Assembly: GCF_913775725.1 (NCBI RefSeq)
Contig: NZ_CAJYNG010000014.1
Source of the DNA: an uncultured Stenotrophomonas sp.
GTDB lineage: Bacteria; Pseudomonadota; Gammaproteobacteria; Xanthomonadales; Xanthomonadaceae
Strand: one strand, 5' to 3'
Length of the DNA stretch: 64,000 nt
Shown here: positions 868 through 22,709 of the stretch, piece by piece
Layout: each line of letters begins with the position of its first letter
How positions within the stretch are numbered: position 1 is the first letter of the stretch
Program-made: the position numbers and the translations under genes
Notes under the pieces: model-generated
Told to the model about the DNA's origin: nothing
The model's database searches: none
What the model saw: the letters and a program-made list of their open reading frames with translations, nothing else

Positions 868-2100
868 TCAGAACGACAGGTCGCCCCAGACGCCGAATTC
901 CTTGGTCTTGTCGTTCTTCTTGTCGCCGGCGTTGGCCAGGTGCGTGTACTTGTACACGGTCGACAGCTTGAGGTTCTTCATGACCGGGAACTCGACGCCG
1001 ACGTTCCAGTACTTGTCGCTCAGGGTCGGGTCCAGGGTCTTGCTGACGTCGGTGTCATCGTAACGACCGAACACGTTGATGCCGCCGTCGGTGACGCGCA
1101 CGCTGCCCCACACCGACCAGCCGCTGGTCTTGTCGGTGGCAACGGTCATCACGTTGTTGAGGTTCTTGGCCTGGAAGTACTCGCCACCGACGCGGAAGTT
1201 GCTGTCGGCGTAGGCCACCATCGCGTTGGCGCGGGTGTAGGTGTTCTCGGCGCTCTGGATGTCGGTTTCCTTGCCCAGCTTGCCGCTGTAGCCGCCGACG
1301 GCCACCACGAAGTTTTCGTTCGGGGTGTAGGCCACGCGGCCTTCCACGTCCATGCCCTTGCTGCGGGTCGGGTTCTTGTAGCCGGCGCCGGACACGACCG
1401 ACACGGCGTAGTTGAAGTTGTTGCCCAGGTTGCCGAAGCCATGCAGGCCCCAGTCGGACGAGTTGCCGTACTTCAGGCGGTCGGTCAGGGTGTTCTCGAC
1501 ATAGCGCATGCCGTAGAACTTCTCGACGTACGGGATCCACGGCATGTCGGCGGCACCGACGCGCATGTTGAAGGCCGGGTCGAAGCTGCCCTGCACGTAG
1601 GCCTTCTTGACGAACAGTTCGGTGTTGCCGATGGCCGAGCTGTACTGGAAGTCGGTGGTCAGGTTCGCCGACCAGATGTCGTTGAACTTGTGGTCGACGG
1701 TCAGGTAGAAGCGCTTGACGTCCAGACCGGTGCCGCTGGCGGCGGTGTCCTTGCCGTTGCTGGTCTTGTCGATGTTGGTCAGGTCGAAGAACATGCGACC
1801 GCCAATCTTGTTGTCATTGACCAGCTTGGCCAGCTTGTCGACGCTGGTCTGGGTCTTCTGCGCACCTTCCAGGGCCTGCGCCTGGGTGATGTTCACTTCG
1901 GACTGCGCGTCGGACTGCGCCTGCAGCGCCTGCGAATCGTTCTGCAACTGCTGGACCTGGGCCTGCAGCGCAGCGATCTGTGCCTGCAGCTGCTGCAGCT
2001 GTGCCTGGGATACGCCCGAGCTGGCGGGGGCTGCGAAGGCGTCGGCAGAAACCAGACCGAGGCTTGCAACGACCGCGGCGGCGAGCAAATGGGAACGCAT
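868..2100 (-). CDS. outer-membrane beta-barrel porin with N-terminal Gln/Ala coiled coil; likely Pho-regulated (OprO/OprP-type position next to pst)
   Basis: The ORF is 868..2145. I prefer the start at M16 (ATG 2100) because it has a GGAGAA RBS and the signal peptide MRSHLLAAAVVASLGLVSADAFA. The body has alternating beta-strand character and a C-terminal ...GVWGDLSF. A Pho box lies about 90 nt upstream and a pst operon is adjacent. The family assignment is an inference. Confidence 0.75.
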   Translation of the reverse strand: MRSHLLAAAVVASLGLVSADAFAAPASSGVSQAQLQQLQAQIAALQAQVQQLQNDSQALQAQSDAQSEVNITQAQALEGAQKTQTSVDKLAKLVNDNKIGGRMFFDLTNIDKTSNGKDTAASGTGLDVKRFYLTVDHKFNDIWSANLTTDFQYSSAIGNTELFVKKAYVQGSFDPAFNMRVGAADMPWIPYVEKFYGMRYVENTLTDRLKYGNSSDWGLHGFGNLGNNFNYAVSVVSGAGYKNPTRSKGMDVEGRVAYTPNENFVVAVGGYSGKLGKETDIQSAENTYTRANAMVAYADSNFRVGGEYFQAKNLNNVMTVATDKTSGWSVWGSVRVTDGGINVFGRYDDTDVSKTLDPTLSDKYWNVGVEFPVMKNLKLSTVYKYTHLANAGDKKNDKTKEFGVWGDLSF

Positions 2101-2188
2101 TTTGGATTTCTCCAGAGGGTTGGAATGGCTTGGGCAGAACGCCACGCCGGCAGGCCGGTCAAGCGTTTTGCGAACGTTCCGTTAAAAC

Positions 2189-2208
2189 CATGACAGCCGA
2201 ATGACAGA
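2189..2208 (-). promoter_or_regulatory. Pho box (PhoB binding site) upstream of the porin gene
   Basis: The minus strand reads CTGTCAT-TCGG-CTGTCAT-GG. These are two perfect 7-bp direct repeats with 11-bp phasing, matching the E. coli-type Pho box CTGTCAT-N4-CTGTCAT. Confidence 0.75.
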
Positions 2209-2547
2209 TTGAGCACCAACCACAGATTTCTTCGTGCGGTCATGCGTACGACTCATTTGTGCCCACATGCTTGTCGATCCCTTGCGGCATATGGCGTCAC
2301 GTATCAGCGTCCCGGCCCGGGCCGACCGCCGCGCAGCCCTGACCTGCATCGATGGTTTCGTGTGGATGACGCAGCATCACTGCGGAATGCCGGGCCGGGA
2401 CGGCATTGGCGACCACAGCGGACAGGTCATCAGCGACATATGGAACGTGATCGCAACCGGCGTACGTCCGTCTCCGGCGCATTGGTCATCACGTTGCCCG
2501 CAGGACTCAGAACCTTCACCCCCCTGCTGTACGGGCACCGGGCAGCG

Positions 2548-2598
2548 CTGTAACGGCTGCGTCATACAACGGTCCCTGCGTTGTCATCGAACCGTTAT
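2548..2598 (+). promoter_or_regulatory. array of Pho-box-like heptamers upstream of pstS (paralogue 1)
   Basis: Heptamers CTGTAAC (2548), GCGTCAT (2559), CGGTCCC (2570), TTGTCAT (2581) and CCGTTAT (2592) are spaced exactly 11 bp apart. The array ends about 55 nt before the GTG start. Confidence 0.6.
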
Positions 2599-2652
2599 GG
2601 AATGTGCGCCGGGCGGGTAACCCCGCATCCCAATCAACCCAGGAGCCACCCC

Positions 2653-3669
2653 GTGATCCACGCCTTCAAGTCGCGCGTTGCCGTTGCCGTCTTCGCAGCG
2701 TCGTCCGTGTTCGCCGCCAACGCCGCTGAAATCACCGGCGCGGGCGCCTCGTTCATCTACCCGGTGATGTCGAAGTGGTCGGCCGACTACAACGCCGCCA
2801 CCAGCAACAAGGTCAACTACCAGTCGATCGGTTCCGGCGGCGGCATTGCGCAGATCAAGGCCAAGACCGTTGATTTCGGCTCCTCCGACGCCCCGCTGAA
2901 GCCGGAAGAACTGGCGGCTTCGGGCCTGGCGCAGTTCCCCTCGGTGATCGGCGGCGTGGTGCCGGTGGTCAACGTGGCCGGCATCGCTCCGGGCGCGCTG
3001 AAGCTGGACGGCACCGTGCTGGCCAACATCTTCCTGGGCAAGATCAAGACCTGGAACGACCCGGCCATCGCCGCGCTGAACCCGGGCGTGACCCTGCCGA
3101 GCGCCAAGATCACCGTCGTGCACCGCTCGGATGGTTCGGGCACCACCTTCAACTTCGTCAACTACCTGTCCAAGGTCAGCCCGGAGTGGAAGAGCTCGGT
3201 CGGTGAAGGCACCTCGGTCCAGTGGCCGGCCGGCATCGGTGGCAAGGGCAATGAAGGCGTTGCCGCCTACGTGAAGCAGATCAAGGGCGGCATCGGCTAC
3301 GTCGAACTGTCCTACGCGCTGCAGAACAAGCTGTCGTACACCGCGATGAAGAATGCCGCCGGCCGCTTCGTGCAGCCGAGCGACGCGTCGTTCGCCGCCG
3401 CCGCTGCCAGCGCCGACTGGGCCAGCGCCAAGGACTTCTACCTGGTGATGACCAACGCCCCGGGCGCCGAGTCCTGGCCGATCACCGCCACCAACTTCAT
3501 CCTGGTGCACAAGAAGCCGAAGAACGCTGCCAACGGCAAGGCCACCCAGGAGTTCTTCCGCTGGGTCTACAAGAGCGGCGACGCCCAGGCCCGCCAGCTG
3601 GACTACGTGCCGCTGCCGGACAGCCTGGTCCGCCAGATCGAGACCTACTGGTCGCAGAACCTGAAGTAA
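2653..3669 (+). CDS. pstS: phosphate ABC transporter substrate-binding protein, soluble periplasmic paralogue (PstS/PhoX-type)
   Basis: The ORF track starts at 2581. I prefer GTG 2653, preceded by AGGAG at 2641-2645, which gives the signal peptide VIHAFKSRVAVAVFAASSVFAANA. PstS motifs are present: GAGASFIYP, YQSIGSGGGI, DFGSSDAP, HRSDGSGTTFNF. Confidence 0.9.
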   Translation: MIHAFKSRVAVAVFAASSVFAANAAEITGAGASFIYPVMSKWSADYNAATSNKVNYQSIGSGGGIAQIKAKTVDFGSSDAPLKPEELAASGLAQFPSVIGGVVPVVNVAGIAPGALKLDGTVLANIFLGKIKTWNDPAIAALNPGVTLPSAKITVVHRSDGSGTTFNFVNYLSKVSPEWKSSVGEGTSVQWPAGIGGKGNEGVAAYVKQIKGGIGYVELSYALQNKLSYTAMKNAAGRFVQPSDASFAAAAASADWASAKDFYLVMTNAPGAESWPITATNFILVHKKPKNAANGKATQEFFRWVYKSGDAQARQLDYVPLPDSLVRQIETYWSQNLK

Positions 3670-4103: not shown

Positions 4104-4130
4104 CTGTCATGGTCGTAATACGGCTGTAAC
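4104..4130 (+). promoter_or_regulatory. Pho-box-like sequence upstream of pstS (paralogue 2) operon
   Basis: CTGTCAT (4104-4110) and CTGTAAC (4124-4130). The spacing is 20 bp rather than 22, so it is less canonical than the other two sites. Confidence 0.4.
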
Positions 4131-4193
4131 AAAAACATCATTTCATAGCCGCATCCGCCGACGCCGTCGGCTCTACCCCGCTATGGAGTGACC

Positions 4194-5282
4194 ATGAAAC
4201 TGCACTCGGCCGGCCTTGCCGCCCTTTCCCTGGCCATCGCCCTGGGCCTGTCGGCCTGCGGTGGCGACAAGCAGGCAGCGCAGCAGCCGGCTGCCGACGG
4301 TGCCGCCGCCCCGGCCGCTGCCGGTGCCAAGGTGACCGCCGAAGTGTCCGGTGCCGGCGCTTCCTTCATCTTCCCGCTGGTCTCCAAGTGGTCGGCTGAC
4401 TACAACGCCAGTACCGGCGCCAAGATCAACTACCAGTCGATCGGCTCGGGCGGCGGTATCGCCCAGATCAAGGCCGGCACCGTCGACTTCGGTTCCTCCG
4501 ACAAGCCGCTGAGCAGCGAGGAGCTGGCCCAGGCCGGCCTGGCGCAGTTCCCGTCCGCCATCGGCGGCGTGGTGCCGGTGGTCAACATCGAAGGCCTGGA
4601 AGCCGGCAAGCTGCGCCTGAGCGGCGCCCTGCTGGCCGACATCTTCCTGGGCAAGGTCAAGACCTGGAACGACCCGGCCATCGTCGCCGCCAACCCGGGC
4701 GTGAAGCTGCCGGAAGGCAAGATCACCCTGGTCCACCGTTCGGACGGTTCGGGCACCACCTTCAACTTCTCCAACTACCTGTCCAAGGTCAGCCCGGAGT
4801 GGAAGAGCAAGGTCGGCGAAGGCACGTCGGTGCAGTGGCCGGACGGCGTTGGTGGCAAGGGCAACGAAGGCGTTGCTTCCTACGTGAAGCAGATCAAGGG
4901 CTCCATCGGCTACGTCGAACTGGCCTACGCGCTGCAGAACGGCATGCCGTACACCGCCATGCAGAACGCGGCCGGCAACTGGGTCGAGCCGAGCGCGGAA
5001 ACCTTCGCCGCTGCAGCCGCCAGCGCCGACTGGGCCAGCGCCAAGGACTTCAACCTGGTCATCACCAACGCTCCGGGCGAGCAGGCGTGGCCGATCACCG
5101 CCACCAACTTCATGCTGATGCAGAAGCAGCCGAAGGACGCCAAGCGCAACCAGGACACCCTGGCCTTCTTCAAGTGGGCCTTCGAGAACGGCCAGACCCA
5201 GGCCAACGAGCTGCACTACGTGCCGCTGCCGGCCGAACTGGTCAAGCAGATCGAGGCCTACTGGGCGACCGACCTGAAGTGA
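4194..5282 (+). CDS. pstS: phosphate ABC transporter substrate-binding lipoprotein (PstS paralogue 2)
   Basis: The ORF track starts at GTG 4188. ATG 4194 has GGAG 5 nt upstream and gives MKLHSAGLAALSLAIALGLSAC with a lipobox (LSAC). It carries the same PstS motifs as paralogue 1 (GAGASFIFP, YQSIGSGGGI, HRSDGSGTTFNF). Confidence 0.9.
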   Translation: MKLHSAGLAALSLAIALGLSACGGDKQAAQQPAADGAAAPAAAGAKVTAEVSGAGASFIFPLVSKWSADYNASTGAKINYQSIGSGGGIAQIKAGTVDFGSSDKPLSSEELAQAGLAQFPSAIGGVVPVVNIEGLEAGKLRLSGALLADIFLGKVKTWNDPAIVAANPGVKLPEGKITLVHRSDGSGTTFNFSNYLSKVSPEWKSKVGEGTSVQWPDGVGGKGNEGVASYVKQIKGSIGYVELAYALQNGMPYTAMQNAAGNWVEPSAETFAAAAASADWASAKDFNLVITNAPGEQAWPITATNFMLMQKQPKDAKRNQDTLAFFKWAFENGQTQANELHYVPLPAELVKQIEAYWATDLK

Positions 5283-8122: not shown

Positions 8123-8830
8123 ATGAATCTTCCCAACGACCACATCGTCAAGAGCTACGACGAAGAGCAGCAGCGCCTGGTGGCCGAGATCGTGCGCATG
8201 GGCGAGATGGCCGTCGCCCAGCTCGAAGCCGCGATGGACGTGATCGAGAAGCGCGACGAAAACGCCGCCCATCGCATCATCGCCAACGACGAAGCGATTG
8301 ATGCGCTTGAGCAGCAGATCAGCCACGACGTGATGCGCCTGGCACTGCGTGGCCCGATGGCGCGTGACCTGCGCGAGATCCTGGCGGGCCTGCGCATCCC
8401 GGCCGACATCGAACGCATCGGCGACTATGCAGCGAACGTGGCCAAGCGTTCGATCGCGCTGGGCAAGGTGCCGCCGCTGCCGCAGATCCAGGGCTTGCGT
8501 GCGCTGGGCCGCCTGGCCGCGCAGCAGGTGCGCCGCGCCATTGCCGCCTACCGCGACAACGACGCCGATGCCGCGCTGGAACTGCGCGAGGACGACGCCC
8601 GCCTGGACGCGCAGTACACCGCGCTGTTCCGCGAGCTGCTGACCTACATGATGGAAGACCCGCGCAACATCACCCCGTGCACGCACCTGCTGTTCATGGC
8701 CAAGAACCTGGAGCGCGTGGGTGACCACGCCACCAACATCGCCGAGAACGTGTGGTTCCTGGTGCACGGCGAGCAGCCGCTGCCGCCGCGTGAAAAGCGC
8801 GACGAGACCTCCAGCACCGGGCAGCCCTGA
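8123..8830 (+). CDS. phoU: phosphate signalling regulator PhoU
   Basis: 235-aa protein with two PhoU repeats, each carrying the E(R/N)xGD motif (ADIERIGDYAANV and AKNLERVGDHATNI). It sits in the pst operon position. Confidence 0.93.
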   Translation: MNLPNDHIVKSYDEEQQRLVAEIVRMGEMAVAQLEAAMDVIEKRDENAAHRIIANDEAIDALEQQISHDVMRLALRGPMARDLREILAGLRIPADIERIGDYAANVAKRSIALGKVPPLPQIQGLRALGRLAAQQVRRAIAAYRDNDADAALELREDDARLDAQYTALFRELLTYMMEDPRNITPCTHLLFMAKNLERVGDHATNIAENVWFLVHGEQPLPPREKRDETSSTGQP

Positions 8831-8864
8831 CGCTGCACTGCAACACCGGAGTTGACTCCAAGGT

Positions 8865-8899
8865 GGCCGCTGTCCTGGTGACAGCGGCCTTCTTTTTTT
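8865..8899 (+). terminator. intrinsic terminator of the pst-phoU operon
   Basis: Stem ggccgctgt (8865-8873) pairs with acagcggcc (8881-8889), followed by ttcttttttt. Confidence 0.85.
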
Positions 8900-9089
8900 G
8901 AGGTGTTCCACCCGCATTGTGGGCGCCGGGCTTGCCCGGCGCGAACCCGCCGGATGCTTCTGTAACAAACCTCACGAAAATTTGAGGTCTTGGCGAGGAT
9001 TCGTTGAGTAGGATCGCTGCACCATCGATTCCACCGGCACCCCTGCCGGCCACCCGGGCACCCGCCCACACCACCCAGGAGCACGACCG

Positions 9090-9446
9090 ATGAGCAGTTC
9101 CAACAAGACCCTGTCCCTGCTGACTGCTACCGCCCTGGCCGCCGGCCTGGGCATGACCGCCAGTGCCTCGGCGCTGAGCATGAGCGACCTGGCCCAGGGC
9201 TATCTGGTGGCCGGCCAGGCGGCCAAGGCCAGCACCGATGCCAAGGCAGCGGATACCAGGATGGCCGCTGACGCGACCAAGCACGCCGAAGGCAAATGTG
9301 GTGCCGATGGCAAGAGTGCCGAAGGCAAGTGCGGCGCCGACAAGGGCAAGGCTGCCGGTGCTGCGGCAGGCGCCAAGGCCAAGACCGGCGACAAGAAGTC
9401 GGCCGAGGGCAAGTGCGGCGAAGGCAAGTGCGGTGCCAAGCACTGA
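9090..9446 (+). CDS. Sec-exported RiPP precursor peptide with four EGKCG motifs (HvfA/bufferin-like metallophore precursor)
   Basis: AGGAG RBS at 9077-9081. Signal peptide [28 protein letters not shown]. The Ala/Lys/Gly-rich core carries Cys70, Cys81, Cys109 and Cys114, each inside EGKCG. A DUF692/DUF2063/DoxX gene set follows immediately. Confidence 0.8.
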
Positions 9447-10308
9447 CGTCCGCGCCAGCGCCGTCCACCTGCGGTCGCCGCTTCATGCGGCGGCCGCCGG
9501 GTTGGGGCTGCGCAGGGCGCTGCTGCAGGATCTGCGCGATGCACCGGCCGGCGACTTCGATTTCCTCGAATGCGCGCCGGAGAACTGGATTCACGTCGGC
9601 GGTCCCGCCGGTGATGCACTGGCCGAACTGGCGCAGCGCCATCCGTTGAGTTGCCACGGCCTGTCGTTGTCGCTGGGCGGCAGCACGCCACTGGATACGC
9701 AGCTGCTGGAACAGGTCGGCCAGTTCCTGGAAAAGCACCGTGTGCCGCTGTACAGCGAGCACCTGAGCTACTGCAGCGACGACGGTCACCTGTACGACCT
9801 GCTGCCGATTCCGTTCACCGACGAAGCGGTGCGCCATACCGCCGCGCGCATCGCCCGCGTGCAGGACCTGCTGGGTCGCCGCATCGCGGTGGAGAATGTG
9901 TCCTACTACCTGGCACCGGAACCGGCAATGGACGAACTGGCCTTCACCAATGCCGTGCTCGCCGAGGCCGACTGCGACCTGTTGCTGGACGTCAACAACG
10001 TCTACGTCAACGCCTGCAACCATGGCTACGACGCCGACACCTTCATTGCCGGGCTGCCCGCAGAGCGCATCGTCTGCCTGCACGTGGCCGGGCACCTGGA
10101 CGAGGCACCGGACCTGAAGATCGATACCCATGGCAGCGCGGTGATCGATCCCGTCTGGGACCTGCTGGCGCGTACCTACGCGCGCATCGGCCCGCGCCCC
10201 ACCCTGCTCGAACGCGATTTCAATTTCCCGCCCTATGCAGAACTGCAGGGCGAACTGCAGACCATCCGCCGCCTGCAGGCCGCGCACGCCGGGGCTGCAC
10301 ATGGCTGA
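9433..10308 (+). CDS. DUF692 / MNIO-family (multinuclear non-haem iron oxidative) peptide-modifying enzyme, MbnB/HvfB/BufB-like
   Basis: The frame-1 ORF (track 9238..10308) has no ATG after the precursor gene. GTG 9433 (overlapping the precursor by 14 nt, with aagg upstream) or TTG 9502 are the candidate starts. DUF692-like blocks are present: [73 protein letters not shown]. The 5' end is uncertain. Confidence 0.8.
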
Positions 10309-11056
10309 CGCCACCGACACCCTGCGTGCGCAGCAGCACGCGTTCACTGCCCATCTGCGCGATCCGGAGGGCGTGCCGCCACCGGCCGGCCTGGAGCCAC
10401 GCCGGGTGGCGGTGTACCAACGGCTGCTGTTCAACAATCTGCTCGGCCTGTTGAGCAACGGCTTCCCGGTCTGCGTGCGCCTGCTTGGCGAACCGGCCTG
10501 GAGCATGCTGGTACGCCACTACTTCGCCACCCATCGCTGCCAGACACCGCTGTTCACCGAACTGGCCGCCGAGTTCGTGCAGTGGCTGCAGGTGCAGCCG
10601 CAGCTGCCGCATCCGGCGCTGGCCGAACTGGCCCACTACGAGTGGGTGGAAACCGCGCTGTACCAGCTTCCTGCCGAGCAGCTGCCGGTGCCAGGTGACA
10701 TCGACCCGCTGCGGGTGCCGCTGCAGCGCTCGCCGCTGGCGTGGCCTCTGCTGTACCAGTGGCCGGTGCACCGGCTCGGCGCCGAGGACGCACCGTCACA
10801 ACCGCCGGCCGAACCCACCGGCCTGCTGGTCCGCCGCGAGGCCGATGGCGAGGTGCGCTTTGCCGTACTCAGCCCGCTGGCGGTGTACCTGCTGTCCAGC
10901 ATCGGGGAACACCCCGGCCTTGATGGTCATGCCTACCTGCAGCGCCTGGCCGCCGCGCACGGCCTGGCCGAGGACGCGCTGGCCGTACCCGGTGCTGCGC
11001 TGCTGCAGCAGTTCCTGCAGGCCGGCGTGATCGGCCCGCTCGCAGTCCCCAGCTGA
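10301..11056 (+). CDS. DUF2063-family partner protein (MbnC/HvfC/BufC-like substrate-recognition subunit)
   Basis: ATG 10301 overlaps the upstream stop (ATGGCTGA). The N-terminus ...[15 protein letters not shown]...[16 protein letters not shown] is typical of DUF2063 as I remember it. This family is almost always encoded directly after DUF692. Confidence 0.8.
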
Positions 11057-11081
11057 CGCCCCTTTCCCCGGAGAACCGCCG

Positions 11082-11618
11082 ATGAACCTCCCGACCCTGG
11101 CCACCGCGCGCGGCCAGCTGGACCGTCTCGCCCCCTGGTTGGCCCCGCTCGGGCTTCGCCTGCTGCTGGCCTGGGAGTACTTCGAATCCGGCCGCGAGAA
11201 ACTGCACGGCCAGAACTGGTTCGCCGACCTGCAGGACGCCTTTCCGTTCCCGTTCGACCAGCTGCCGGCCACCCTGAACTGGCAGCTCGCCACGTGGTTC
11301 GAACTGATCGGCGCGGCCTGCCTGCTGGTTGGCTTCGGCACCCGGTTTGCCGCGGCCAGCCTGCTGGTACTGACTATTGTGGCCACCTATGCGGTGCATT
11401 GGCCGATGGAGTGGAACTCGCTGTCTGACCTCGCCATGGGCTACGCGATCACTGACCAGGGCTTCGGCAACTTCAAGCTGCCGGTGCTGTTCATGGCGAT
11501 GTTGCTGCCACTGATCTTCACCGGCGCCGGCAAGCTGAGTGTGGATGCGTGGTTGGCGCGCGCCGTGCCAACCAAGGTTGGCACCTACCGGAATCCTGAA
11601 CGTGCGGTGCTCCGGTAG
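11082..11618 (+). CDS. DoxX-family integral membrane protein (fourth gene of the operon)
   Basis: GGAGAA RBS. It has four hydrophobic segments in a DoxX-like layout ([13 protein letters not shown]..., [50 protein letters not shown]). The last ~17 codons and the TAG stop lie inside repeat elements. Confidence 0.75.
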
Positions 11619-11638
11619 GTGTCGACCTTGGTCGACAC
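11565..11638. repeat. inverted pair of GTAG-type palindromic repeats (GTGCCAACC/GGTTGGCAC and GTGTCGACC/GGTCGACAC stems)
   Basis: Units gtgccaaccaaggttggcacCTACcgg (11565-11591) and ccgGTAGgtgtcgaccttggtcgacac (11612-11638). The same family occurs at 22927, 22977, 24479, 24515, 24552, 38443, 38471 and 44770. Confidence 0.85.
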
Positions 11639-11699
11639 ACGCCCGCGCAGGGAACCCGTGCACCGCAGGCTGGCCGGGCGCTCAGGGTCGCTCTGCTAG

Positions 11700-12359
<660 letters not shown>

Positions 12360-15725: not shown

Positions 15726-17135
15726 TCAGCCAGCCCGGCCCGGGGGCACCACCTGCGCGCTGGCCGGCCACTGCACTACCGCCTCCAGCCCGCCTTCGGC
15801 GCGGTTGCGCAGCCACAGGCGAGCGCCGTCCTTCTCGGCCAGTGCGCGGGCGATGGTCAGGCCCAGCCCGGCGCCGCCGGTTTCGCGCGAACGCGAGGTC
15901 TCCACCCGCACGAACGGGTCGAACACGGCTTCCAGCTGATCCTCGGCCAGGCCGGGGCCGTCGTCGGCCACCACCACGGTGATCGCGCCGCCACTGCGCT
16001 CGACCCGTACCCGCACCCGGTAGGCATACATCACCGCGTTGTCCACCAGGTTGGAAAACAGGCGGTGCATGGCCAGCGGACGCAACATCAACACCGCTCC
16101 GCTGCCCCCTTCGAAGACGACATCACCGCCGCCCTCGGCGGTGTCTTCAACGATGCTCTCCAGCAGCGAATCCAGGTCCAGTGCGGCACGCTGCTCGGCG
16201 CTCTCAGCACTGCGCGCCAGCTCCAGGCCTTCGCGCACCAACGCCTGCATCGCGGCCAGATCGCCGATCAGGCGCTCGCGCAGTACCTCGTCGCTGACGT
16301 TTTCCAGGCGCAGGCGCAGGCGGGTCAGCGGCGTCTGCAGGTCATGGGTGATCGCCGCCAGCATCTGCGTGCGCTCGGCCAGATGCCGCTGCAGGCGGTG
16401 CTGCATGGCGTTGAAGGCTTCGGCGGCACGCTGCACCTCGCGCGGCCCGCGCAGGGGCAAGGGATCGCGCTGCAGGTCGTCGCCAAGGTCCTCGGCGGCA
16501 GCGGCCAGTTCCTGCAGCGGCGCGCTGGCCATGCGCGCGACGATGTACGCCAGCACCGCAATCGCCAGCACCAGCAGGGTCAGGAACCATGGATCCACGG
16601 CAAGAATGCCGTTGTGCGCCACGGCCGGTGAATCCAGTGCCAGCTTGAGCAGCGTGCCGTCGTTGAGGGTCACGTCGACCGCACGGCACTTGGGCGGGAT
16701 GAACGCCGGATCACGTTCGCGCGGATGCCGGCGGTGCCCGGGCGGCGGTGGCGGCAGCAGATCCTGCAGCTTGGGAATGCACGAGCGGAACGAAGCAAAG
16801 TGCACGTGGGCGCGGGATACCGGCCCCGGACGGTCTTCCAGTACTTCCATCAGCGCGGTGTCGGCACGTCCCAGCCGAGCACCCGGCTGCAGCGCACGCA
16901 CGCTCGGCCCGCCGATCTCGAGCAGGCGCTCGCGCAGCTCCGGATTGCCATCGAGCAGGTTGACGTAGCCCTGCAGGCGATCGGCGATGCGGTTCAGGTT
17001 CTGCCGTTCGAACTCCTGCTGGCGCTTGGAGGTGGCCAGCATGGTCGCGCCGATCGCGGCCACGCTCATGCCCAGCAGCAGGATCACGAACAACCGCCCG
17101 ACCATCGAGGACAGGAAATGGCGCAGGCGCTTCAT
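15726..17135 (-). CDS. sensor histidine kinase (EnvZ/OmpR-class: 2 TM, HAMP, HisKA, HATPase_c)
   Basis: H-box ITHDLQTPLTRL, N-box LFSNLVDNAVMYA, G-boxes DDGPGL and GGAGLGLTIA. It lies directly downstream of an OmpR-type response regulator. Confidence 0.9.
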   Translation of the reverse strand: MKRLRHFLSSMVGRLFVILLLGMSVAAIGATMLATSKRQQEFERQNLNRIADRLQGYVNLLDGNPELRERLLEIGGPSVRALQPGARLGRADTALMEVLEDRPGPVSRAHVHFASFRSCIPKLQDLLPPPPPGHRRHPRERDPAFIPPKCRAVDVTLNDGTLLKLALDSPAVAHNGILAVDPWFLTLLVLAIAVLAYIVARMASAPLQELAAAAEDLGDDLQRDPLPLRGPREVQRAAEAFNAMQHRLQRHLAERTQMLAAITHDLQTPLTRLRLRLENVSDEVLRERLIGDLAAMQALVREGLELARSAESAEQRAALDLDSLLESIVEDTAEGGGDVVFEGGSGAVLMLRPLAMHRLFSNLVDNAVMYAYRVRVRVERSGGAITVVVADDGPGLAEDQLEAVFDPFVRVETSRSRETGGAGLGLTIARALAEKDGARLWLRNRAEGGLEAVVQWPASAQVVPPGRAG

Positions 17136-17141
17136 CGAGGC

Positions 17142-17870
17142 TTATTCCAGGTTCACCGACGAGGCCAGTACGTAGCCTTCGTTGCGCACGGTCTTGATCA
17201 GGCCGTCCGGGCCACCGTCGTCGCCCAGCTTGTTGCGCAGCCGGCTGACCTGCAGGTCGATGGCGCGGTCCTGCGCCTCGTAGTTGCGGCCACTGCTGAG
17301 CGCCACCAGCTGTTCGCGCGACAGCACCTTGTTGGCATGGGCGATGAACACCCGCAGCAGCCGGAACTCGGCACCGGACAGCACCACCACGCGGTCATCC
17401 GGATCCACCAGGTGGCGATGTTCCAGGTCGAACACCCAGCGCGAGAAGCGCGCACGGCGCACCGCCAGCGGCTCCAGGTTGGCCGGCAGCGCCTCAGTCC
17501 GGCGCAGCACGTTGCGGATGCGCGCCAGCAGCTCGCGCGGTTCGAACGGCTTGGCCAGGTAGTCGTCGGCACCCATTTCCAGGCCCAGCACGCGGTCGAT
17601 CGGCTCGGCGCGTGCGGTCAGCATGATCACCGGGGTGTTCGAGCGCGCGCGCAGGTCGCGGCACAGGGTCAGACCATCCTCGCGCGGCAGGTTGAGGTCG
17701 AGCACGATCAGGTCCACATGCTCACGGTCCAGCAGCTGGCGCATGGCGGTGCCATCGGCGGCCGTGCTCACCTGGTAGCCGGCACGGCCGAGCTGTTCGG
17801 CCAGCAGAGTCCGGATGTCGTTGTCGTCGTCGACGATCAGCAGTCGATGCATCGTGTTTTCAGTCTCCAT
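17142..17870 (-). CDS. OmpR-family response regulator (receiver plus winged-helix)
   Basis: LLIVDDD, DLIVLDLNLP and the PVIMLTA...K receiver motifs, with a C-terminal winged helix ...IKTVRNEGYVL. The start could also be M7 (17852). Confidence 0.9.
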   Translation of the reverse strand: METENTMHRLLIVDDDNDIRTLLAEQLGRAGYQVSTAADGTAMRQLLDREHVDLIVLDLNLPREDGLTLCRDLRARSNTPVIMLTARAEPIDRVLGLEMGADDYLAKPFEPRELLARIRNVLRRTEALPANLEPLAVRRARFSRWVFDLEHRHLVDPDDRVVVLSGAEFRLLRVFIAHANKVLSREQLVALSSGRNYEAQDRAIDLQVSRLRNKLGDDGGPDGLIKTVRNEGYVLASSVNLE

Positions 17871-18073
17871 GTCGCGATCATCCCGTGTCGGCAGCTGAAC
17901 CGCATCCGGGGCAATGCGTACCAGTGTATCCAGCCATGGGTGGGATACCTGTGGTTACGCGTATTCACCGACAGTGTTACATACAGACATACCCCGAGGA
18001 TTGGCCCCCCGTCGGTCGATCTTCACAATGCCCACCAACGCCGCCACCGCGGCCCCGAGAGTGAAGCCACGAC

Positions 18074-19315
18074 GTGACGTTCCGCCTGCTGCCTGCGACC
18101 CGCCGAGGTCGCCTGATACTGATCGCCCTGCTTGCCCTTGCCGTCGCCGCAGCCGCCTGGTGGCTGCTGCGCAAGCCCGCCGCCCCGGCCGTAGCGACCA
18201 CCCCGGTCAGCCGCGGCGACATCGAGCAGACGGTGGAGGCCACCGGCGTGATCGACGCCTACAAGCTGGTCAGCGTCGGCGCGCAGGCCTCGGGCCAGAT
18301 CAAGTCACTGAAGGTGCAGCTGGGCGACACCGTGAAGGAAGGCGACCTGATCGCCGAGATCGATGCCACCACCCAGCAGAACCAGGTGCTCAACGCGCAG
18401 GCCTCGCTGGACCAGGTCACCGCCCAGCGCGCCGTGCAGCAGGCCACCCTGCGCCAGGCCGAACTGGAATTCGCACGCCAGCAGCAGATGCTGGCCGCCG
18501 AGGCCACCTCGCGCCAGGAATACGATGCCGCCGAGGCCCAGCTGAAGACGGCCCGTGCCCAGCTGCAGTCCTACGAGGCGCAGATCAAGGGCCGCGAAAC
18601 CGAGCTGGGCACCGCCCGCGCCAACCTGGCCTACACCCGCATCACCGCGCCGATGGATGGCACCGTGGTGGCAGTGGTGGCCGAGGAAGGCCGCACCGTG
18701 AACGCCAACCAGACCGCACCGACCATCGTCATGCTGGCGCGGTTGGATGTGGTCACCGTCAATGCCGAGATCTCCGAGGCCGATGTGGTCAAGATCAAGG
18801 CCGGCATGCCGGTGTACTTCACCACGCTGGGCGAGCCGGACCGCAAGTACCACGCCACCCTGCGCCAGATCAATCCGGCGCCGGCCTCGATCGCCAATGA
18901 AAACTCGTCCAGTTCCAGCAGCTCCTCCAGTTCCAGCTCCAGCAGCGCGGTGTACTACAACGCGCTGTTCGATGTGGAGAACCCGGACGGCACGCTGCGC
19001 ATCGACATGACCGCGCAGGTCTCGGTGCTGCTCAAGCAGGCCAAGGGCGTGCTGATGGTGCCGGCGGTAGCTCTGGGACCGAAGCGCCGTGGCGACGAGC
19101 GCATGGTGCGGGTGCTGGACGACAAGGGCCAGCCGCAGCCGCGCAAGGTCACCGTGGGCATCAACAACGGCGCCTCGGCCGAGATCCTGTCCGGGCTGAA
19201 GGAAGGCGAGCGCGTGGTGGTCGGCGAAGCCGGTGCGGCCGGTGCCAGCGCCGGCGGCGGCAACCGCGGCGGCATGCAGATGCGGGTTGGCGGCCCGGGC
19301 ATGGGGCGCCGATGA
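18074..19315 (+). CDS. macA: MacA-type periplasmic adaptor (HlyD/RND-MFP family) of an ABC tripartite efflux pump
   Basis: GTG start and an N-terminal TM. Blocks resemble E. coli MacA ([45 protein letters not shown]). Its stop overlaps the macB ATG. It carries an unusual 14-Ser run. Confidence 0.88.
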
Positions 19316-21270
19316 GCACGACGGCGCCGCTGCTGCGCCTGCGCGACCTGCGACGCGAATTCCCGGCCGGCGACGATGTGATCGCCGTGCTGCGTGACGT
19401 CAATCTCGACATCCACGCCGGTGAGATGGTGGCCATCGTCGGCCAGTCCGGCTCGGGCAAGTCGACGCTGATGAACATCCTCGGCTGCCTCGATCGTCCC
19501 ACCCGTGGCAGCTACCAGGTGGCCGGCCGCGAAACCGGGAAGATGGAGCCGGACGAGCTGGCCGAACTGCGTCGCGAGCATTTCGGCTTCATCTTCCAGC
19601 GCTACCACCTGCTGGGCGACCTGGATGCGCGCGGCAACGTGGAAGTACCGGCGGTGTATGCCGGCAGCCCGGGCGCAGTGCGCAACGCGCGTGCCGAGCA
19701 GCTGCTGCAGCGGCTTGGCCTGAGCGACCGCATGCACCACAAGCCAGGCCAACTGTCCGGTGGCCAGCAGCAGCGCGTGTCGATCGCACGTGCCCTGATG
19801 AACGGCGGCGAGGTGATCCTGGCCGACGAACCGACCGGCGCGCTCGACACGAAATCCGGCGAGGAAGTGATGGCGATCCTCGGCGAGCTGCACGCCGAAG
19901 GCCACACCATCATCATCGTCACCCACGACATGAGCGTTGCCGAGCATGCGCAGCGCATCATCGAGATCCGCGATGGCGAGATCATCGCCGACCGCGCCAA
20001 CCCGAACGCACCTTCCTACCGCGCGCAGCGCGAGGCCAGTACCGGCGTTGCCCACGGCAACAGCTGGCGGGCCGCGCGCGACCGCTTCACCGAAGCGTTC
20101 CGCATGGCGCTGCTGGCGATGAACGCACATCGGCTGCGCACCTTCCTGACCATGCTCGGCATCATCATCGGCATTGCCTCGGTGGTCTCGGTGGTGGCGC
20201 TGGGCAATGGCTCGCAGCAGCAGATCCTGCAGAACATCAGCGCGCTCGGCACCAACACCATCGACGTCTATCCGGGCCGTGGTTTCGGCGACATGCGCTC
20301 GGCGCGGGTACAGACGCTCAAGGCCAGCGATGCCGATGCACTGGCAAAGCAGAGCTACGTGGACAGCGCCACCCCCAGCGTGTCGACCTCGGTCACGGCC
20401 CGCTACCGCAACCAGTCCTCCACCGCCCAGGTCAGCGGCGTTGGCGAGCAGTTCTTCCGGGTCAAGGGCGTGACCCTGCTCAGCGGCAGCTTCTTCGATA
20501 GCGATGCGGTGAAGGGCCTGGGCCAGGTGGCGGTGATCGACGAGAACACCCAGACCCAGTTCTTCCCCGATGTCGATCCGGTCGGCCAGGTGATCCTGCT
20601 CGGCAACGTGCCGGCGCGCGTGGTCGGCGTGGCCAAGCGCCAGAGTTTCGGCTTCGGCGGCAGCACCAGCCTCAGCGTGTGGGTGCCGTACACCACGGTG
20701 ATGTCGCGCATGCTCGGCCAGAGCCACGTCTCCAGCATCACCGTGCGCGTGGACGACGACACGCCGATGGATGCCGCACAGGAAGCGATCACCCGACTGT
20801 TGACGATGCGCCATGGCACCGAGGACTTCTTCCTCAGCAACAGCGCCGAGATCCGCGAGACCATCGAGCAGACCACGCGCACGATGACCCTGCTGATCGG
20901 GGCCATCGCCGCGATCGCGCTGCTGGTCGGTGGCATCGGTGTGATGAACATCATGCTGGTGTCGGTGACCGAGCGCACCCGCGAGATCGGCGTGCGCATG
21001 GCCGTGGGTGCACGGCAAAGTGATATCCGCCAGCAGTTCCTGATCGAAGCGGTGCTGGTGTGCCTGCTCGGTGGCCTGCTCGGCATCGGCCTGGCCCTGC
21101 TGCTGGGCTCGATGATCGGCCGCCTCGCCAGCGACTTCCAGGTGCTGTTCTCCACCGCCTCGATCGTTGCCGCCTTCGCCTGCTCCACCCTGATCGGCGT
21201 GGCGTTCGGCTTCCTGCCCGCGCGCAACGCCGCGCAGCTCGACCCGGTGGAGGCCCTGGCCCGCGAATGA
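19312..21270 (+). CDS. macB: MacB-type ABC transporter (N-terminal ATPase fused to 4-TM FtsX-like permease with periplasmic domain)
   Basis: Walker [10 protein letters not shown], signature [14 protein letters not shown], Walker [12 protein letters not shown], and a C-terminal FtsX-type permease ...[14 protein letters not shown]... Confidence 0.92.
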
Positions 21271-22709
21271 AGATGATGATGACCCGACTGCCCTTCCCCG
21301 CTCCCTCGCGCCTGCTGCTGGCGGGCGCCGTTCTGCTCGCCCTGTCCGGCTGCGCATCGGTGGGCCGCTACCCGGTGCAGGATCCCAGCGTGGCGGCCAG
21401 CTACGGGCGTGGCGACGCCACCCTCAATGCACCCTCCGACGACCCGCGCAGCAGCCTGGATACTCCGGGCCGCGACATCCGCCAGGACACCTGGTGGACC
21501 GGTTTCGGCGATGAGCGTCTCGACCGCCTGGTGGCGCAGGCGCTGGCCGCCAACAGCGATCTGGCCGCCGCCGGCCTGGCCGTGCAGCGTTCGCGCCTGC
21601 AGGCCGGCCTGGCCAGCAATGCGCTGTGGCCGCAGCCCTCGTCTTCGGGCGTGAGCGGCAGCGCCAGCCGCGCCACCGACCAGTCTGATGATTGGCGTCG
21701 CAGCTATTCCACAGGCGTGTCGCTGGGTTGGGAGGTCGATCTGTGGGGCCGCCTGCGCACCCAGCGCGACATCGCCCGCTGGGAAGCCGAGGCCAGCGAA
21801 GAAGACCGGCAGAACACCGCGTTGCTGGTGATCGGCGACACCATCACCCAGTACTGGAACCTGGCCTATCTCAACCAGTCGATCGCCACCGGCCAGGCCA
21901 ACCTGGAGCGGCTGGAGCGCACCCGCGAACTGGTGCAGGCCCGCTTCGACGCCGGTGCGGTATCGCGCCTGGAAGTCCGCCAGGCACTGCAGAACCTGCA
22001 ATCGCAGCGTTCCTCGCAGAGCGCACTGGAACAGCAGCGGGTGGAGGTGCGCAATGCACTGGCCGTGCTGCTGGACGGCACGCCCTGGCCGCAGCAGGAC
22101 GAACCGCAGGACCTGCTGGCCGCACGCAGCCCCGGCATCAACGAAGGGCTGCCGACCGACCTGCTCGGCCGCCGTCCCGACCTGCGCGCGGCCGAACTGC
22201 GCCTGCGCAACAGCCTGAAGACGATCAAGGTCACCGCCACCCAGTACTACCCGGCGTTGAGCCTGACCGGCAGCCTCGGCTCCAGTGCAACCTCGCTGGG
22301 CGATGTGCTGCGCAACCCGGTGACCACGCTGGGCGCCGGCCTGTCATTGCCGTTCCTCAACCTGCAGCGCGCGCAGCTGGATACCGACATCGCCGGTACG
22401 GCGTACCAGATTGCTGCAACCAACTTCCGCAAGACGCTGTACACCGCGCTCTCGGAAGTGGACAACGCGCTGTCGGCACGTGAGCAGCTGGCGCGCCAGG
22501 TGGCGGCCTCGCAGGCTTCGTATGACGAAGCGGTGGAAGTGGAGCGCGCGCAGGAAGTGCGTTACCGCGTGGGTGCCACCGACCTGCGCACCTGGCTGGA
22601 AGCGCAGCAGACCCGGCATGATGCCGAGCTGTCGCTGGCACGCGTGCGCCAGGGCCAGCTGAACAACGACGTGACCCTGTTCAAGGCACTGGGCGGCAGC
22701 GCGGGCTGA
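21267..22709 (+). CDS. outer-membrane efflux lipoprotein, NodT/OprM family (third gene of the mac operon)
   Basis: ATG 21267 overlaps the macB stop (ATGA). Lipobox LALSGC. Two OEP repeats are present. From memory, this three-gene layout corresponds to the macABC operon described in S. maltophilia. Confidence 0.88.

Follow-up and report, generated by a model that had tools for sequence, protein, structure and literature searches.

The hvf operon of Haemophilus influenzae, which specifies the peptide oxazolin (Manley et al. 2024, PMC11252979), is the type system of a class of ribosomally synthesised peptides with post-translational modifications (RiPPs) that contain EGKCG motifs. Its enzymes HvfB and HvfC modify all six target cysteines of the precursor HvfA, with a loss of four electrons and 4 Da at each of them, and the product binds copper (PMC11252979). 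Here, we are discussing a four-gene operon found in a 64 kb contig stretch of an uncultured Stenotrophomonas sp. (NZ_CAJYNG010000014.1; this whole stretch is referred to as the window), which is very probably an Hvf-type operon, hvfA-hvfB-hvfC-hvfX, making an exported, copper-binding thiooxazole peptide of the kind also named "oxazolin", Buf_EGKCG or "captophorin". This reading is carried by gene content, family membership, conserved catalytic residues, the compactness of the operon and its conservation across the family.

The modification in oxazolin was originally assigned as oxazolone/thioamide (PMC11252979). Recent work has, however, assigned a 5-thiooxazole in fontiphorin, oxazolin and gonophorin (PMC13097082; bioRxiv 10.64898/2026.06.05.730506), and the thiooxazole product has a chromophore at 302 nm in homologues (PMC11252979, PMC13097082). 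An earlier reading of the window, made from its letters alone (the sequence-only reading), had contrasted an oxazolone/thioamide in Hvf products with a thiooxazole in bufferins; with the reassignment of oxazolin in 2026, this contrast is outdated.

Like the H. influenzae operon, the one in the window encodes the same four protein families, above the NCBIfam Hvf family cut-offs, and likewise a precursor with Sec signal and EGKCG motifs, ending in the same C-terminal EGKCG tandem. The two systems differ in gene order (A-B-C-X in the window versus X-A-B-C in nontypeable H. influenzae), in the cysteines of the precursor (four versus six modified cysteines plus two, the N-terminal pair, in a disulfide), in the arrangement of the motifs (two isolated motifs with 11-residue spacing versus three repeat units) and in regulation, an RpoE2-type regulator being known for H. 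influenzae hvf and none for the organism of the window. These differences are matters of degree. EGKCG repeats also occur in the fon and ngo clusters for fontiphorin and gonophorin, within the "captophorin" Lys-Cys group (Gadgil et al. 2026, PMC13097082), which share with the window the pairing of an MNIO with a DUF2063 protein (PME1) and the Arg-Arg and Asp-Phe residues of the enzyme; a 5-thiooxazole is the expected product. The fon cluster is, however, without a DoxX gene, and FonA has seven modified cysteines, whereas the window's operon, known from its genes alone, includes hvfX and has four.

BufABCD of Caulobacter vibrioides (Leprevost et al. 2024, PMC11626156) shows the same order A-B-C-DoxX, and its Sec export, thiooxazole and periplasmic copper buffering are what may be proposed by analogy for the operon of the window. 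Yet, the window's precursor is neither a DUF2282 (Buf1) nor a Buf_6/12Cys (Buf2) protein, being an EGKCG repeat peptide, and its HvfB lies below the BufB cut-off. A survey published in 2025 describes the Buf_EGKCG/oxazolin class with ~2,000 proteins and the core genes RiPP-MNIO-DUF2063-DoxX (PMC12452194); altogether, published surveys report about 2,000–3,000 EGKCG precursors. Buf_EGKCG type 1 (Leprevost et al. 2025) is characterised by several 17-residue double-motif repeats and a beta-helix, while the precursor of the window has one tandem and no predicted beta-helix, and the EF-hand fusion of some Buf_EGKCG proteins is absent from it. The methanobactin system MbnABC belongs to the same MNIO superfamily, with the iron ligands kept and cysteine converted to a copper-binding heterocycle; however, it has an MbnC partner and a leader peptide, where the window has a DUF2063 partner and a signal peptide, and it makes an oxazolone/thioamide for copper acquisition, where a thiooxazole for detoxification would be expected here. 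Judged by these family assignments, the operon is neither a Buf1/Buf2 bufferin nor a methanobactin system.

Gene content and conserved residues of the operon

Families were assigned with Pfam and curated NCBIfam models, each at the model's own cut-off, and all four products pass the cut-offs of the NCBIfam Hvf families. HvfA scores 30.3 bits against the "KCGExKCG_twice" domain model NF050137 (cut-off 19.5). HvfB matches PF05114 (MbnB_TglH_ChrH) with 338.9 bits and the HvfB family model NF003818 with 419 bits (cut-off 360), while the competing enzyme models stay below their cut-offs: BufB (NF050167) with 266.5 versus 310 bits, ApyH with 93.5 versus 400, MbnB (TIGR04159) with 47.9 versus 325 and ChrH with 44 versus 600. 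HvfC contains the Pfam domains PF09836 (DUF2063) and PF22106 (NGO1945_C) and reaches 259.8 bits against NF050145 (cut-off 142), and HvfX matches PF07681 (DoxX) with 72.5 bits and NF050144 with 153.7 bits (cut-off 80). These scores bear out the sequence-only reading, which had recognised a DUF692/MNIO enzyme, its DUF2063 partner and a DoxX membrane protein as genes 2 to 4, and a match of the whole set to Hvf.

The closest solved structure to HvfB is the di-iron structure 3BWW (272.6 bits, full-length alignment). In an alignment to MbnB (7TCR), eight positions that we take, from MbnB structures, to be metal ligands are kept, namely the His of SEH, the Glu of VEN, D..N in DVNN, the His of LHV, D.H in DTH and the Glu of ERD. 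A ninth ligand, the first His, falls outside the MbnB alignment and is conserved in the 3BWW alignment only (HGLSLSLGG). 3BWW is the MNIO of Histophilus somni, which is 72% identical to H. influenzae HvfB (bioRxiv 10.64898/2026.07.17.739211). Mutagenesis of the H. influenzae enzyme found the site-3 residues N175, D242 and H244 to be essential (bioRxiv 10.64898/2026.07.17.739211), and all three are present in the window's HvfB, as the Asn of DVNN and, in DTH, the Asp and the His. Likewise, the Arg-Arg and Asp-Phe pairs that contact the EGKCG substrate in a model of FonB (PMC13097082) have their counterparts in GLGLRR and ERDF. On these alignments, both the iron-ligand and the substrate-contact residues of HvfB are conserved.

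For HvfC, the closest solved structure is 3DEE (NGO1945), and its exact sequence is on record. HvfX is 90% identical to 173-aa RefSeq HvfX proteins, a lower value than those of HvfB (98%) and of the flanking PhoU and Rnt (100%); most HvfX proteins of Stenotrophomonas have 173 residues, and the window's protein departs from these only in its C-terminal tail, which diverges after ...SVDAWLAR. RefSeq/UniProt mates of HvfB in its 90%-identity cluster are named "HvfB family MNIO-type RiPP peptide maturase", and 90%-cluster mates also bear the names "HvfC family RiPP maturation protein" and "HvfX family Cu-binding RiPP maturation protein". Since HvfB shares 98% identity with its counterparts in Stenotrophomonas sp. 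S11A1a and S. geniculata ATCC 19374, and 85–97% elsewhere across the genus, the window can be assigned to the S. maltophilia complex, a chromosome of which is, by sequence identity, the host of the operon.

All four open reading frames (ORFs) run co-directionally on the + strand between the phoU terminator and rnt, in the tight coupling that had been noticed before (Table 1). No ATG is found near the conserved domain of HvfB; the sole canonical start just upstream of the GLGLR strand is a GTG within hvfA, preceded by GAAGG. The exact 291-aa product of hvfB is already recorded in NCBI with this start; therefore, hvfA and hvfB overlap by 14 nt. hvfB and hvfC overlap by 8 nt (ATGGCTGA); the hvfC ATG (10301–10303) stands 2 nt before the TGA of hvfB (10306–10308) and not, as the sequence-only reading had it, on the stop itself. 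Between hvfC and hvfX lies a gap of 25 nt containing GGAGAA. Codon-position GC of the operon genes is typical of expressed genes; the minus-strand ORFs across the locus, including one of 459 aa at 9127–10506, fail this test and were dismissed as high-GC shadow ORFs.

Chemistry, export route, copper binding and physiological role are inferred from characterised homologues. HvfA would be synthesised with a Sec signal peptide and, before export, be bound by the RRE-type domain of HvfC, which would also activate the iron cofactor of HvfB; HvfC is known to be required for the active mixed-valent di-iron state of HvfB (bioRxiv 10.64898/2026.07.17.739211). Using O2, HvfB would carry out a four-electron oxidation of the cysteine in each (E)GKCG to a 5-thiooxazole, with a shift of −4 Da per cysteine. 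Sec export and cleavage after Ala28 would release a largely disordered, Ala/Lys/Gly-rich periplasmic peptide of ~90 residues, whose two to four thiooxazoles may chelate Cu(I) and buffer excess copper under metal or oxidative stress. HvfX (DoxX) would be an accessory membrane protein, dispensable for the modification. In bufferin-type systems, precursors are exported by Sec after modification and buffer periplasmic copper, and Caulobacter needs DoxX neither for the modification nor for function (PMC11626156).

Table 1. Features of the hvf locus and its flanks (positions in the window)
Feature	Position	Strand	Remark
phoU	8123-8830		upstream flank, confirmed
Intrinsic terminator after phoU	8865..8899	+	10-bp stem with 8 GC pairs, then run of T
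Conserved upstream block CCTCACGAAAATTTGAGG...GGCGAGGATTCGTTGAGTAGGATCG	8970..9016	+	candidate promoter or operator
Shine-Dalgarno AGGAG	9077..9081	+	8 nt before hvfA ATG; read from sequence; conserved in alignment
hvfA	9090..9446	+	118-aa precursor; NF050137 domain model
EGKCG motif 1 (E67-G71)	9288..9302	+	isolated
EGKCG motif 2 (E78-G82)	9321..9335	+	isolated, 11 residues after motif 1
C-terminal EGKCG tandem (E106-G115)	9405..9434	+	canonical HvfA/FonA modification site
hvfB	9433..10308	+	291-aa MNIO (DUF692) maturase; GTG start
hvfC	10301..11056	+	251 aa; DUF2063/NGO1945_C partner, RRE-type C-terminal domain
hvfX	11082..11618	+	178-aa DoxX-family membrane protein
Hairpin GTGTCGAC-CTTG-GTCGACAC	11619..11638	+	directly 3' of hvfX stop; read from sequence
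rnt (RNase T)	11709-12359		downstream flank, confirmed

The precursor peptide HvfA

HvfA is composed of a signal peptide (residues 1–28), a SMSDLAQGY motif (residues 30–38) and an Ala/Lys/Gly-rich core with the four EGKCG motifs, which hold the only cysteines of the protein (C70, C81, C109 and C114). Thus, the peptide of 118 residues with exactly four cysteines, each in EGKCG, stands as first read, and so does the Sec signal, in that inspection of the n-, h- and c-regions recognises a three-part signal peptide: an n-region MSSSNK with its Lys, an h-region at residues 7–22 with a mean Kyte-Doolittle value of 1.52, and a c-region TASASA placing A-S-A before L29, with no lipobox Cys. When all six frames of the window were searched for GKCG or EGxCG, only the four motifs of hvfA and one chance EGRCG (48176, minus strand) came up; the motif pattern is, therefore, not a by-product of composition. 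At the DNA level, 15-nt tandem repeats underlie the EGKCG motifs (Tandem Repeats Finder, 9301–9329 and 9404–9433 of the window). Pfam gave no match for the precursor at E ≤ 0.01, DUF2282 included, and it is through the domain model only that HvfA, by its sequence, is a member of the Hvf family.

Across 33 aligned homologues, HvfA shows no variation at L34, G37 and Y38, which belong to a DLxQGY motif just after the cleavage site, at C81 and G82, or at E106–G110 of the tandem; conservation is 90% or higher at E111–G115 and, in motif 1, at E67, C70 and G71. For the upstream motifs, relatives have variants such as EGSCG, EMKCG or EAKCG. HvfC might plausibly dock on the DLxQGY motif; when FonA was scanned with alanine, no residue ahead of the core turned out to be essential by itself (PMC13097082).

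Further information comes from a comparison set of 80 related loci (Lysobacteraceae, together with five Pseudomonas loci), 78 of which have an hvfA-like ORF immediately upstream of hvfB. The precursors of Stenotrophomonas (n = 48, i.e., 47 loci, L001–L046 and L057, plus the window) contain four cysteines in 26 cases, five in 2 and six in 20. The Cys spacing of the window (11, 28, 5) is the commonest pattern in this genus, an 11-residue spacing followed by the tandem being present in 26 of the 48, and the linkers are of variable length and rich in Ala, Lys and Gly. As a separate observation, EF-hand calcium-binding domains stand between or after the EGKCG motifs in precursors of Lysobacter, Pseudomonas and other relatives (L047, L053, L055, L061–L064, L067–L069, L073, L074, L076–L080); this fusion type of Buf_EGKCG precursor has been described previously (PMC12452194).

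AlphaFold2, run on the 33-sequence alignment, gives a model of HvfA with a mean pLDDT (predicted local distance difference test) of 52, in which the N-terminal part is helical, with a helix at residues 7–21, while most of the core (residues 67–110 and 115–118) scores below 50 and no strands are predicted. The core is thus predicted to be disordered and devoid of a beta-helix, and a beta-helix fold, which had been considered, was rejected on this low-confidence, disordered model.

The suspicion of the sequence-only reading that such a precursor is easy to miss has proved justified. An exact-sequence lookup in a collection of ~15 billion predicted proteins did not find the 118-aa HvfA, although two public genomes (L002, L003) contain an ORF identical to hvfA of the window; the entries that come closest to it are calls with a frameshift or a wrong start (P0001, P0004, P0006, P0010). 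hvfA appears to be routinely uncalled in the public annotation of the S. maltophilia clade.

Genomic setting and regulation of the locus

The operon is preceded by the PstSCAB-PhoU genes and followed by the RNase T gene, and this phoU-[hvf]-rnt arrangement recurs in 74 of the 80 related loci, among them loci of Stenotrophomonas, Lysobacter, Luteimonas, Arenimonas and Vulcaniibacterium; the five Pseudomonas loci are among those that depart from it. A match to hvfX, a frequent but not universal component of such systems, was not detected in 20 of the 80 loci. Across the 47 Stenotrophomonas loci, HvfB is 85–98% conserved, and the gene overlaps, the Shine-Dalgarno sequence and the upstream block are preserved. 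At this place, Stenotrophomonas DNA also turns up in some public records that go under the names Nocardiopsis yanglingensis, Bacillus subtilis and Rhizopus arrhizus (L003, L039; P0002, P0009), with HvfB 86–98% identical and the same synteny; they are probably contaminated assemblies or mislabelled. In some relatives, the operon adjoins a small gene for a secreted His/Arg/Asp-rich protein with a weak CigR-family match, which is absent from the window and is located upstream of hvf in some lineages and downstream in others (e.g., at 4453–4875 in L049; between hvfX and rnt in L022–L024, L029, L034, L035 and L038).

Scans for terminators and sigma-70 promoters covered positions 8700–11900. Within this range, the single terminator-like site is the hairpin directly after phoU, which sets the upstream boundary of the operon and is kept in the aligned S. 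maltophilia-group loci, and no internal terminator was found in the operon. The hairpin behind hvfX has an 8-bp GC-rich stem without a run of U, and the terminator scan made no call there; the fold of 11605–11665 has −29.6 kcal/mol (z = −2.5), and the hairpin may mark the 3' end of the transcript or stabilise the transcript. Further downstream, TAGAAT is found at 11696–11701, just upstream of the first rnt ATG; translation of rnt may actually begin at the second Met (11775), because the RNase T model aligns only from residue 23 onward.

Upstream of hvfA, a block at 8970–9016 is common to the aligned loci of the S. maltophilia and S. rhizophila groups and absent from loci having a gene for an extracytoplasmic function (ECF) sigma factor at that position. 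It contains the dyad CCTCA-N8-TGAGG (spacer CGAAAATT), which in the S. rhizophila group has both arms changed to TTCA-N8-TGAA (spacer CGAAACGT). The block gave no sigma-54 match, and Rfam gave no riboswitch or small RNA match in the region at E ≤ 1. Placement of −35 and −10 elements on the block by hand was rejected for wrong spacer lengths or non-conserved hexamers.

ECF sigma genes occupy the interval between phoU and hvfA, which in the window (8831–9089) is without one, in 17 of the 80 related loci (5047–5586 in L049; further L047, L048, L050, L051, L059, L060, L062, L064–L066, L069–L072, L075 and L079). Carriers are several Lysobacter, an Arenimonas and a minority Stenotrophomonas clade (e.g., L049, L066); the S. 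maltophilia and S. rhizophila groups have no ECF sigma gene at this position. The ECF sigma factors of the relatives have three conserved cysteines (..YHC.., ..LEC.., ..REC..) and no adjacent anti-sigma gene, and the homologous operon of H. influenzae and Neisseria is under ECF control and responds to hypochlorite (PMC7907618). Among the best 120 homologues listed, which are of Lysobacter or, mostly, unnamed, none is named S. maltophilia; that this clade has no orphan copy elsewhere is suggestive only. By eye, G(A/C)A(T/A)CC-N~17-CTCTT precedes the ECF genes of the relatives; the corresponding regular expression, which recovered only 4 of the 17 ECF loci, found no such motif upstream of hvfA.

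The sequence-only reading had found no cognate regulator in cis, and none turned up within about 8 kb on either side of the operon; the regulators encoded within about 10 kb are confined to a GGDEF protein and a two-component pair that adjoins a MacAB-type pump, and small candidate ORFs further away proved to be frr and uppS. The two-component pair (histidine kinase, 15726–17135; response regulator, 17142–17870; both minus strand) is divergent to an efflux operon for MacA, MacB and an outer-membrane factor (18074–22709, + strand), and this whole cluster (15726–22709) appears unrelated to hvf. Regulation of hvfA by Pho was also rejected: the upstream CTGTAAC-AAAC-CTCACGA agrees with the consensus at only 8 of 14 positions, and its first half-site varies from strain to strain, so that a link of hvf to the Pho regulon is, by sequence, weakly supported at best. 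Elsewhere in the window, a perfect Pho box (CTGTCATTCGGCTGTCAT, 2190–2207, minus strand) lies 45 nt upstream of a 425-aa minus-strand ORF (868–2145), for which neither Pfam nor NCBIfam gave a match, and CTGTAAC-type Pho-like boxes (2548–2565; about 4110–4150) precede tandem pstS paralogues (2581–3669, 4188–5282).

From these observations, a more far-reaching proposal can be put together, which we regard as rather improbable when all its parts are taken jointly: hvf of the S. maltophilia complex would have lost its coupling to an ancestral, Cys-containing ECF sigma factor encoded in cis and would now be run through the 8970–9016 block by a different regulator, possibly tied to pst-phoU, and its lineage-typical precursor with two isolated EGKCG motifs and a tandem would form a metal site unlike that of oxazolin.

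Alternative readings and biological meaning

Several points weigh against the proposal of a thiooxazole peptide of the Hvf type with a copper role. Against the equivalog model of H. influenzae HvfA (NF050188), the window's HvfA reaches 24 bits with a cut-off of 95 and is, hence, not an equivalog, and it has no counterpart of the N-terminal Cys pair. Modification of C70 and C81 is uncertain, because their motifs are isolated and FonBC in vitro modified a two-repeat peptide but failed on a one-repeat peptide (PMC13097082); on the other side, both positions are strongly conserved among the 33 homologues. The sigma-70 scan gave no match in 8700–11900, and there is no regulator gene near the operon. 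Finally, the copper role is proposed by analogy, and the H. influenzae operon responds to hypochlorite via RpoE2 (PMC7907618).

Some of these points lead to two readings that keep the family and change the product or its role. Modification might be confined to the C-terminal tandem, giving two thiooxazoles and one copper site and leaving C70 and C81 as free thiols or joined in a disulfide after export. This is possible, if on balance unlikely: FonBC modified two adjacent repeats and not a single one, and the tandem holds constant while the upstream motifs vary, but the latter retain an invariant C81/G82 and the at least 90% conserved E67, C70 and G71, their spacing ahead of the tandem recurs in 26 of the 48 Stenotrophomonas precursors, and FonBC accepted many motif variants in longer peptides (PMC13097082). 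Rather unlikely, too, is a thiooxazole system of the Hvf type whose main role is not copper but defence of the envelope against hypochlorite and oxidants, or sequestration of Au, Ag, Hg or Cd. Induction of the H. influenzae operon by hypochlorite through the ECF sigma factor RpoE2 (PMC7907618) and the Cys-containing ECF sigma gene immediately upstream in relatives fit with such a role, as do the linkage of DoxX proteins to thiol and oxidative stress (PMC12452194) and the reported response of related gig/buf operons to gold (PMC5413113, PMC11626156). However, all characterised members bind copper, and bufferins confer a copper-specific growth benefit (PMC11626156, PMC11252979, PMC13097082).

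The remaining readings place the operon in another family or deny its function. That it encodes a strict bufferin (Buf1/DUF2282 or Buf2) like BufABCD of Caulobacter is scarcely credible and contradicted by the family scores, even though the A-B-C-DoxX order, the enzyme superfamily and the thiooxazole chemistry agree (PMC11626156) and the match to the BufB model, at 266.5 bits, is strong: this value is below its cut-off of 310, while the HvfB model is exceeded (419 versus 360), and the precursor, with neither DUF2282 nor any other Pfam match, is a low-complexity EGKCG repeat peptide predicted to be disordered, unlike the folded Buf1. The match to BufABCD suggested in the sequence-only reading, hence, holds for gene order and chemistry but not for family membership. 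Equally at odds with the enzyme scores (MbnB, 47.9 versus 325) and with a DUF2063 partner in the place of MbnC is a methanobactin-like chalkophore, i.e., a small secreted peptide with oxazolone/thioamide groups for copper acquisition. The common MNIO superfamily and the assignment of 2024 (PMC11252979) would speak for it; the precursor, however, has a Sec signal peptide instead of a leader peptide, and oxazolin has been reassigned to 5-thiooxazole (PMC13097082; bioRxiv 10.64898/2026.06.05.730506), which makes this reading highly implausible. It is also very unlikely that the operon is a silent or decaying remnant in a lineage that lost the accompanying ECF sigma gene. While the lack of a promoter match in 8700–11900, the absence of the sigma gene found in 17 of 80 relatives, and the missing S. 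maltophilia name among the best 120 sigma homologues listed could be so explained, all four frames are intact, HvfB, the overlaps, the Shine-Dalgarno sequence and the upstream block are maintained across the 47 Stenotrophomonas loci, and the codon-position GC is that of expressed genes.

As an Hvf-type system, the operon is already known: it is an ordinary member of a published and catalogued family, since the Hvf/oxazolin family has been surveyed and near-identical HvfB, HvfC and HvfX proteins are named in RefSeq. Publications already cover the family with its chemistry, its role in binding copper and its broad occurrence in Pseudomonadota, and we found no literature on the hvf operon in Stenotrophomonas. 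What is added here is the unrecorded 118-aa precursor, the phoU-hvf-rnt arrangement in 74 of 80 loci, the ECF sigma gene in 17 relatives and the variation in Cys number (four, five or six). As the precursor gene is apparently uncalled, surveys of protein databases undercount it. Furthermore, the 80 loci constitute a natural experiment on regulation, with and without the ECF sigma gene, and on repeat number, with four, five or six cysteines. As an opportunistic pathogen, S. maltophilia is exposed to copper and hypochlorite both inside hosts and in the water systems of hospitals. Considering, too, that the homologue in H. influenzae acts as a virulence factor, a knock-out study of the operon would be reasonable.

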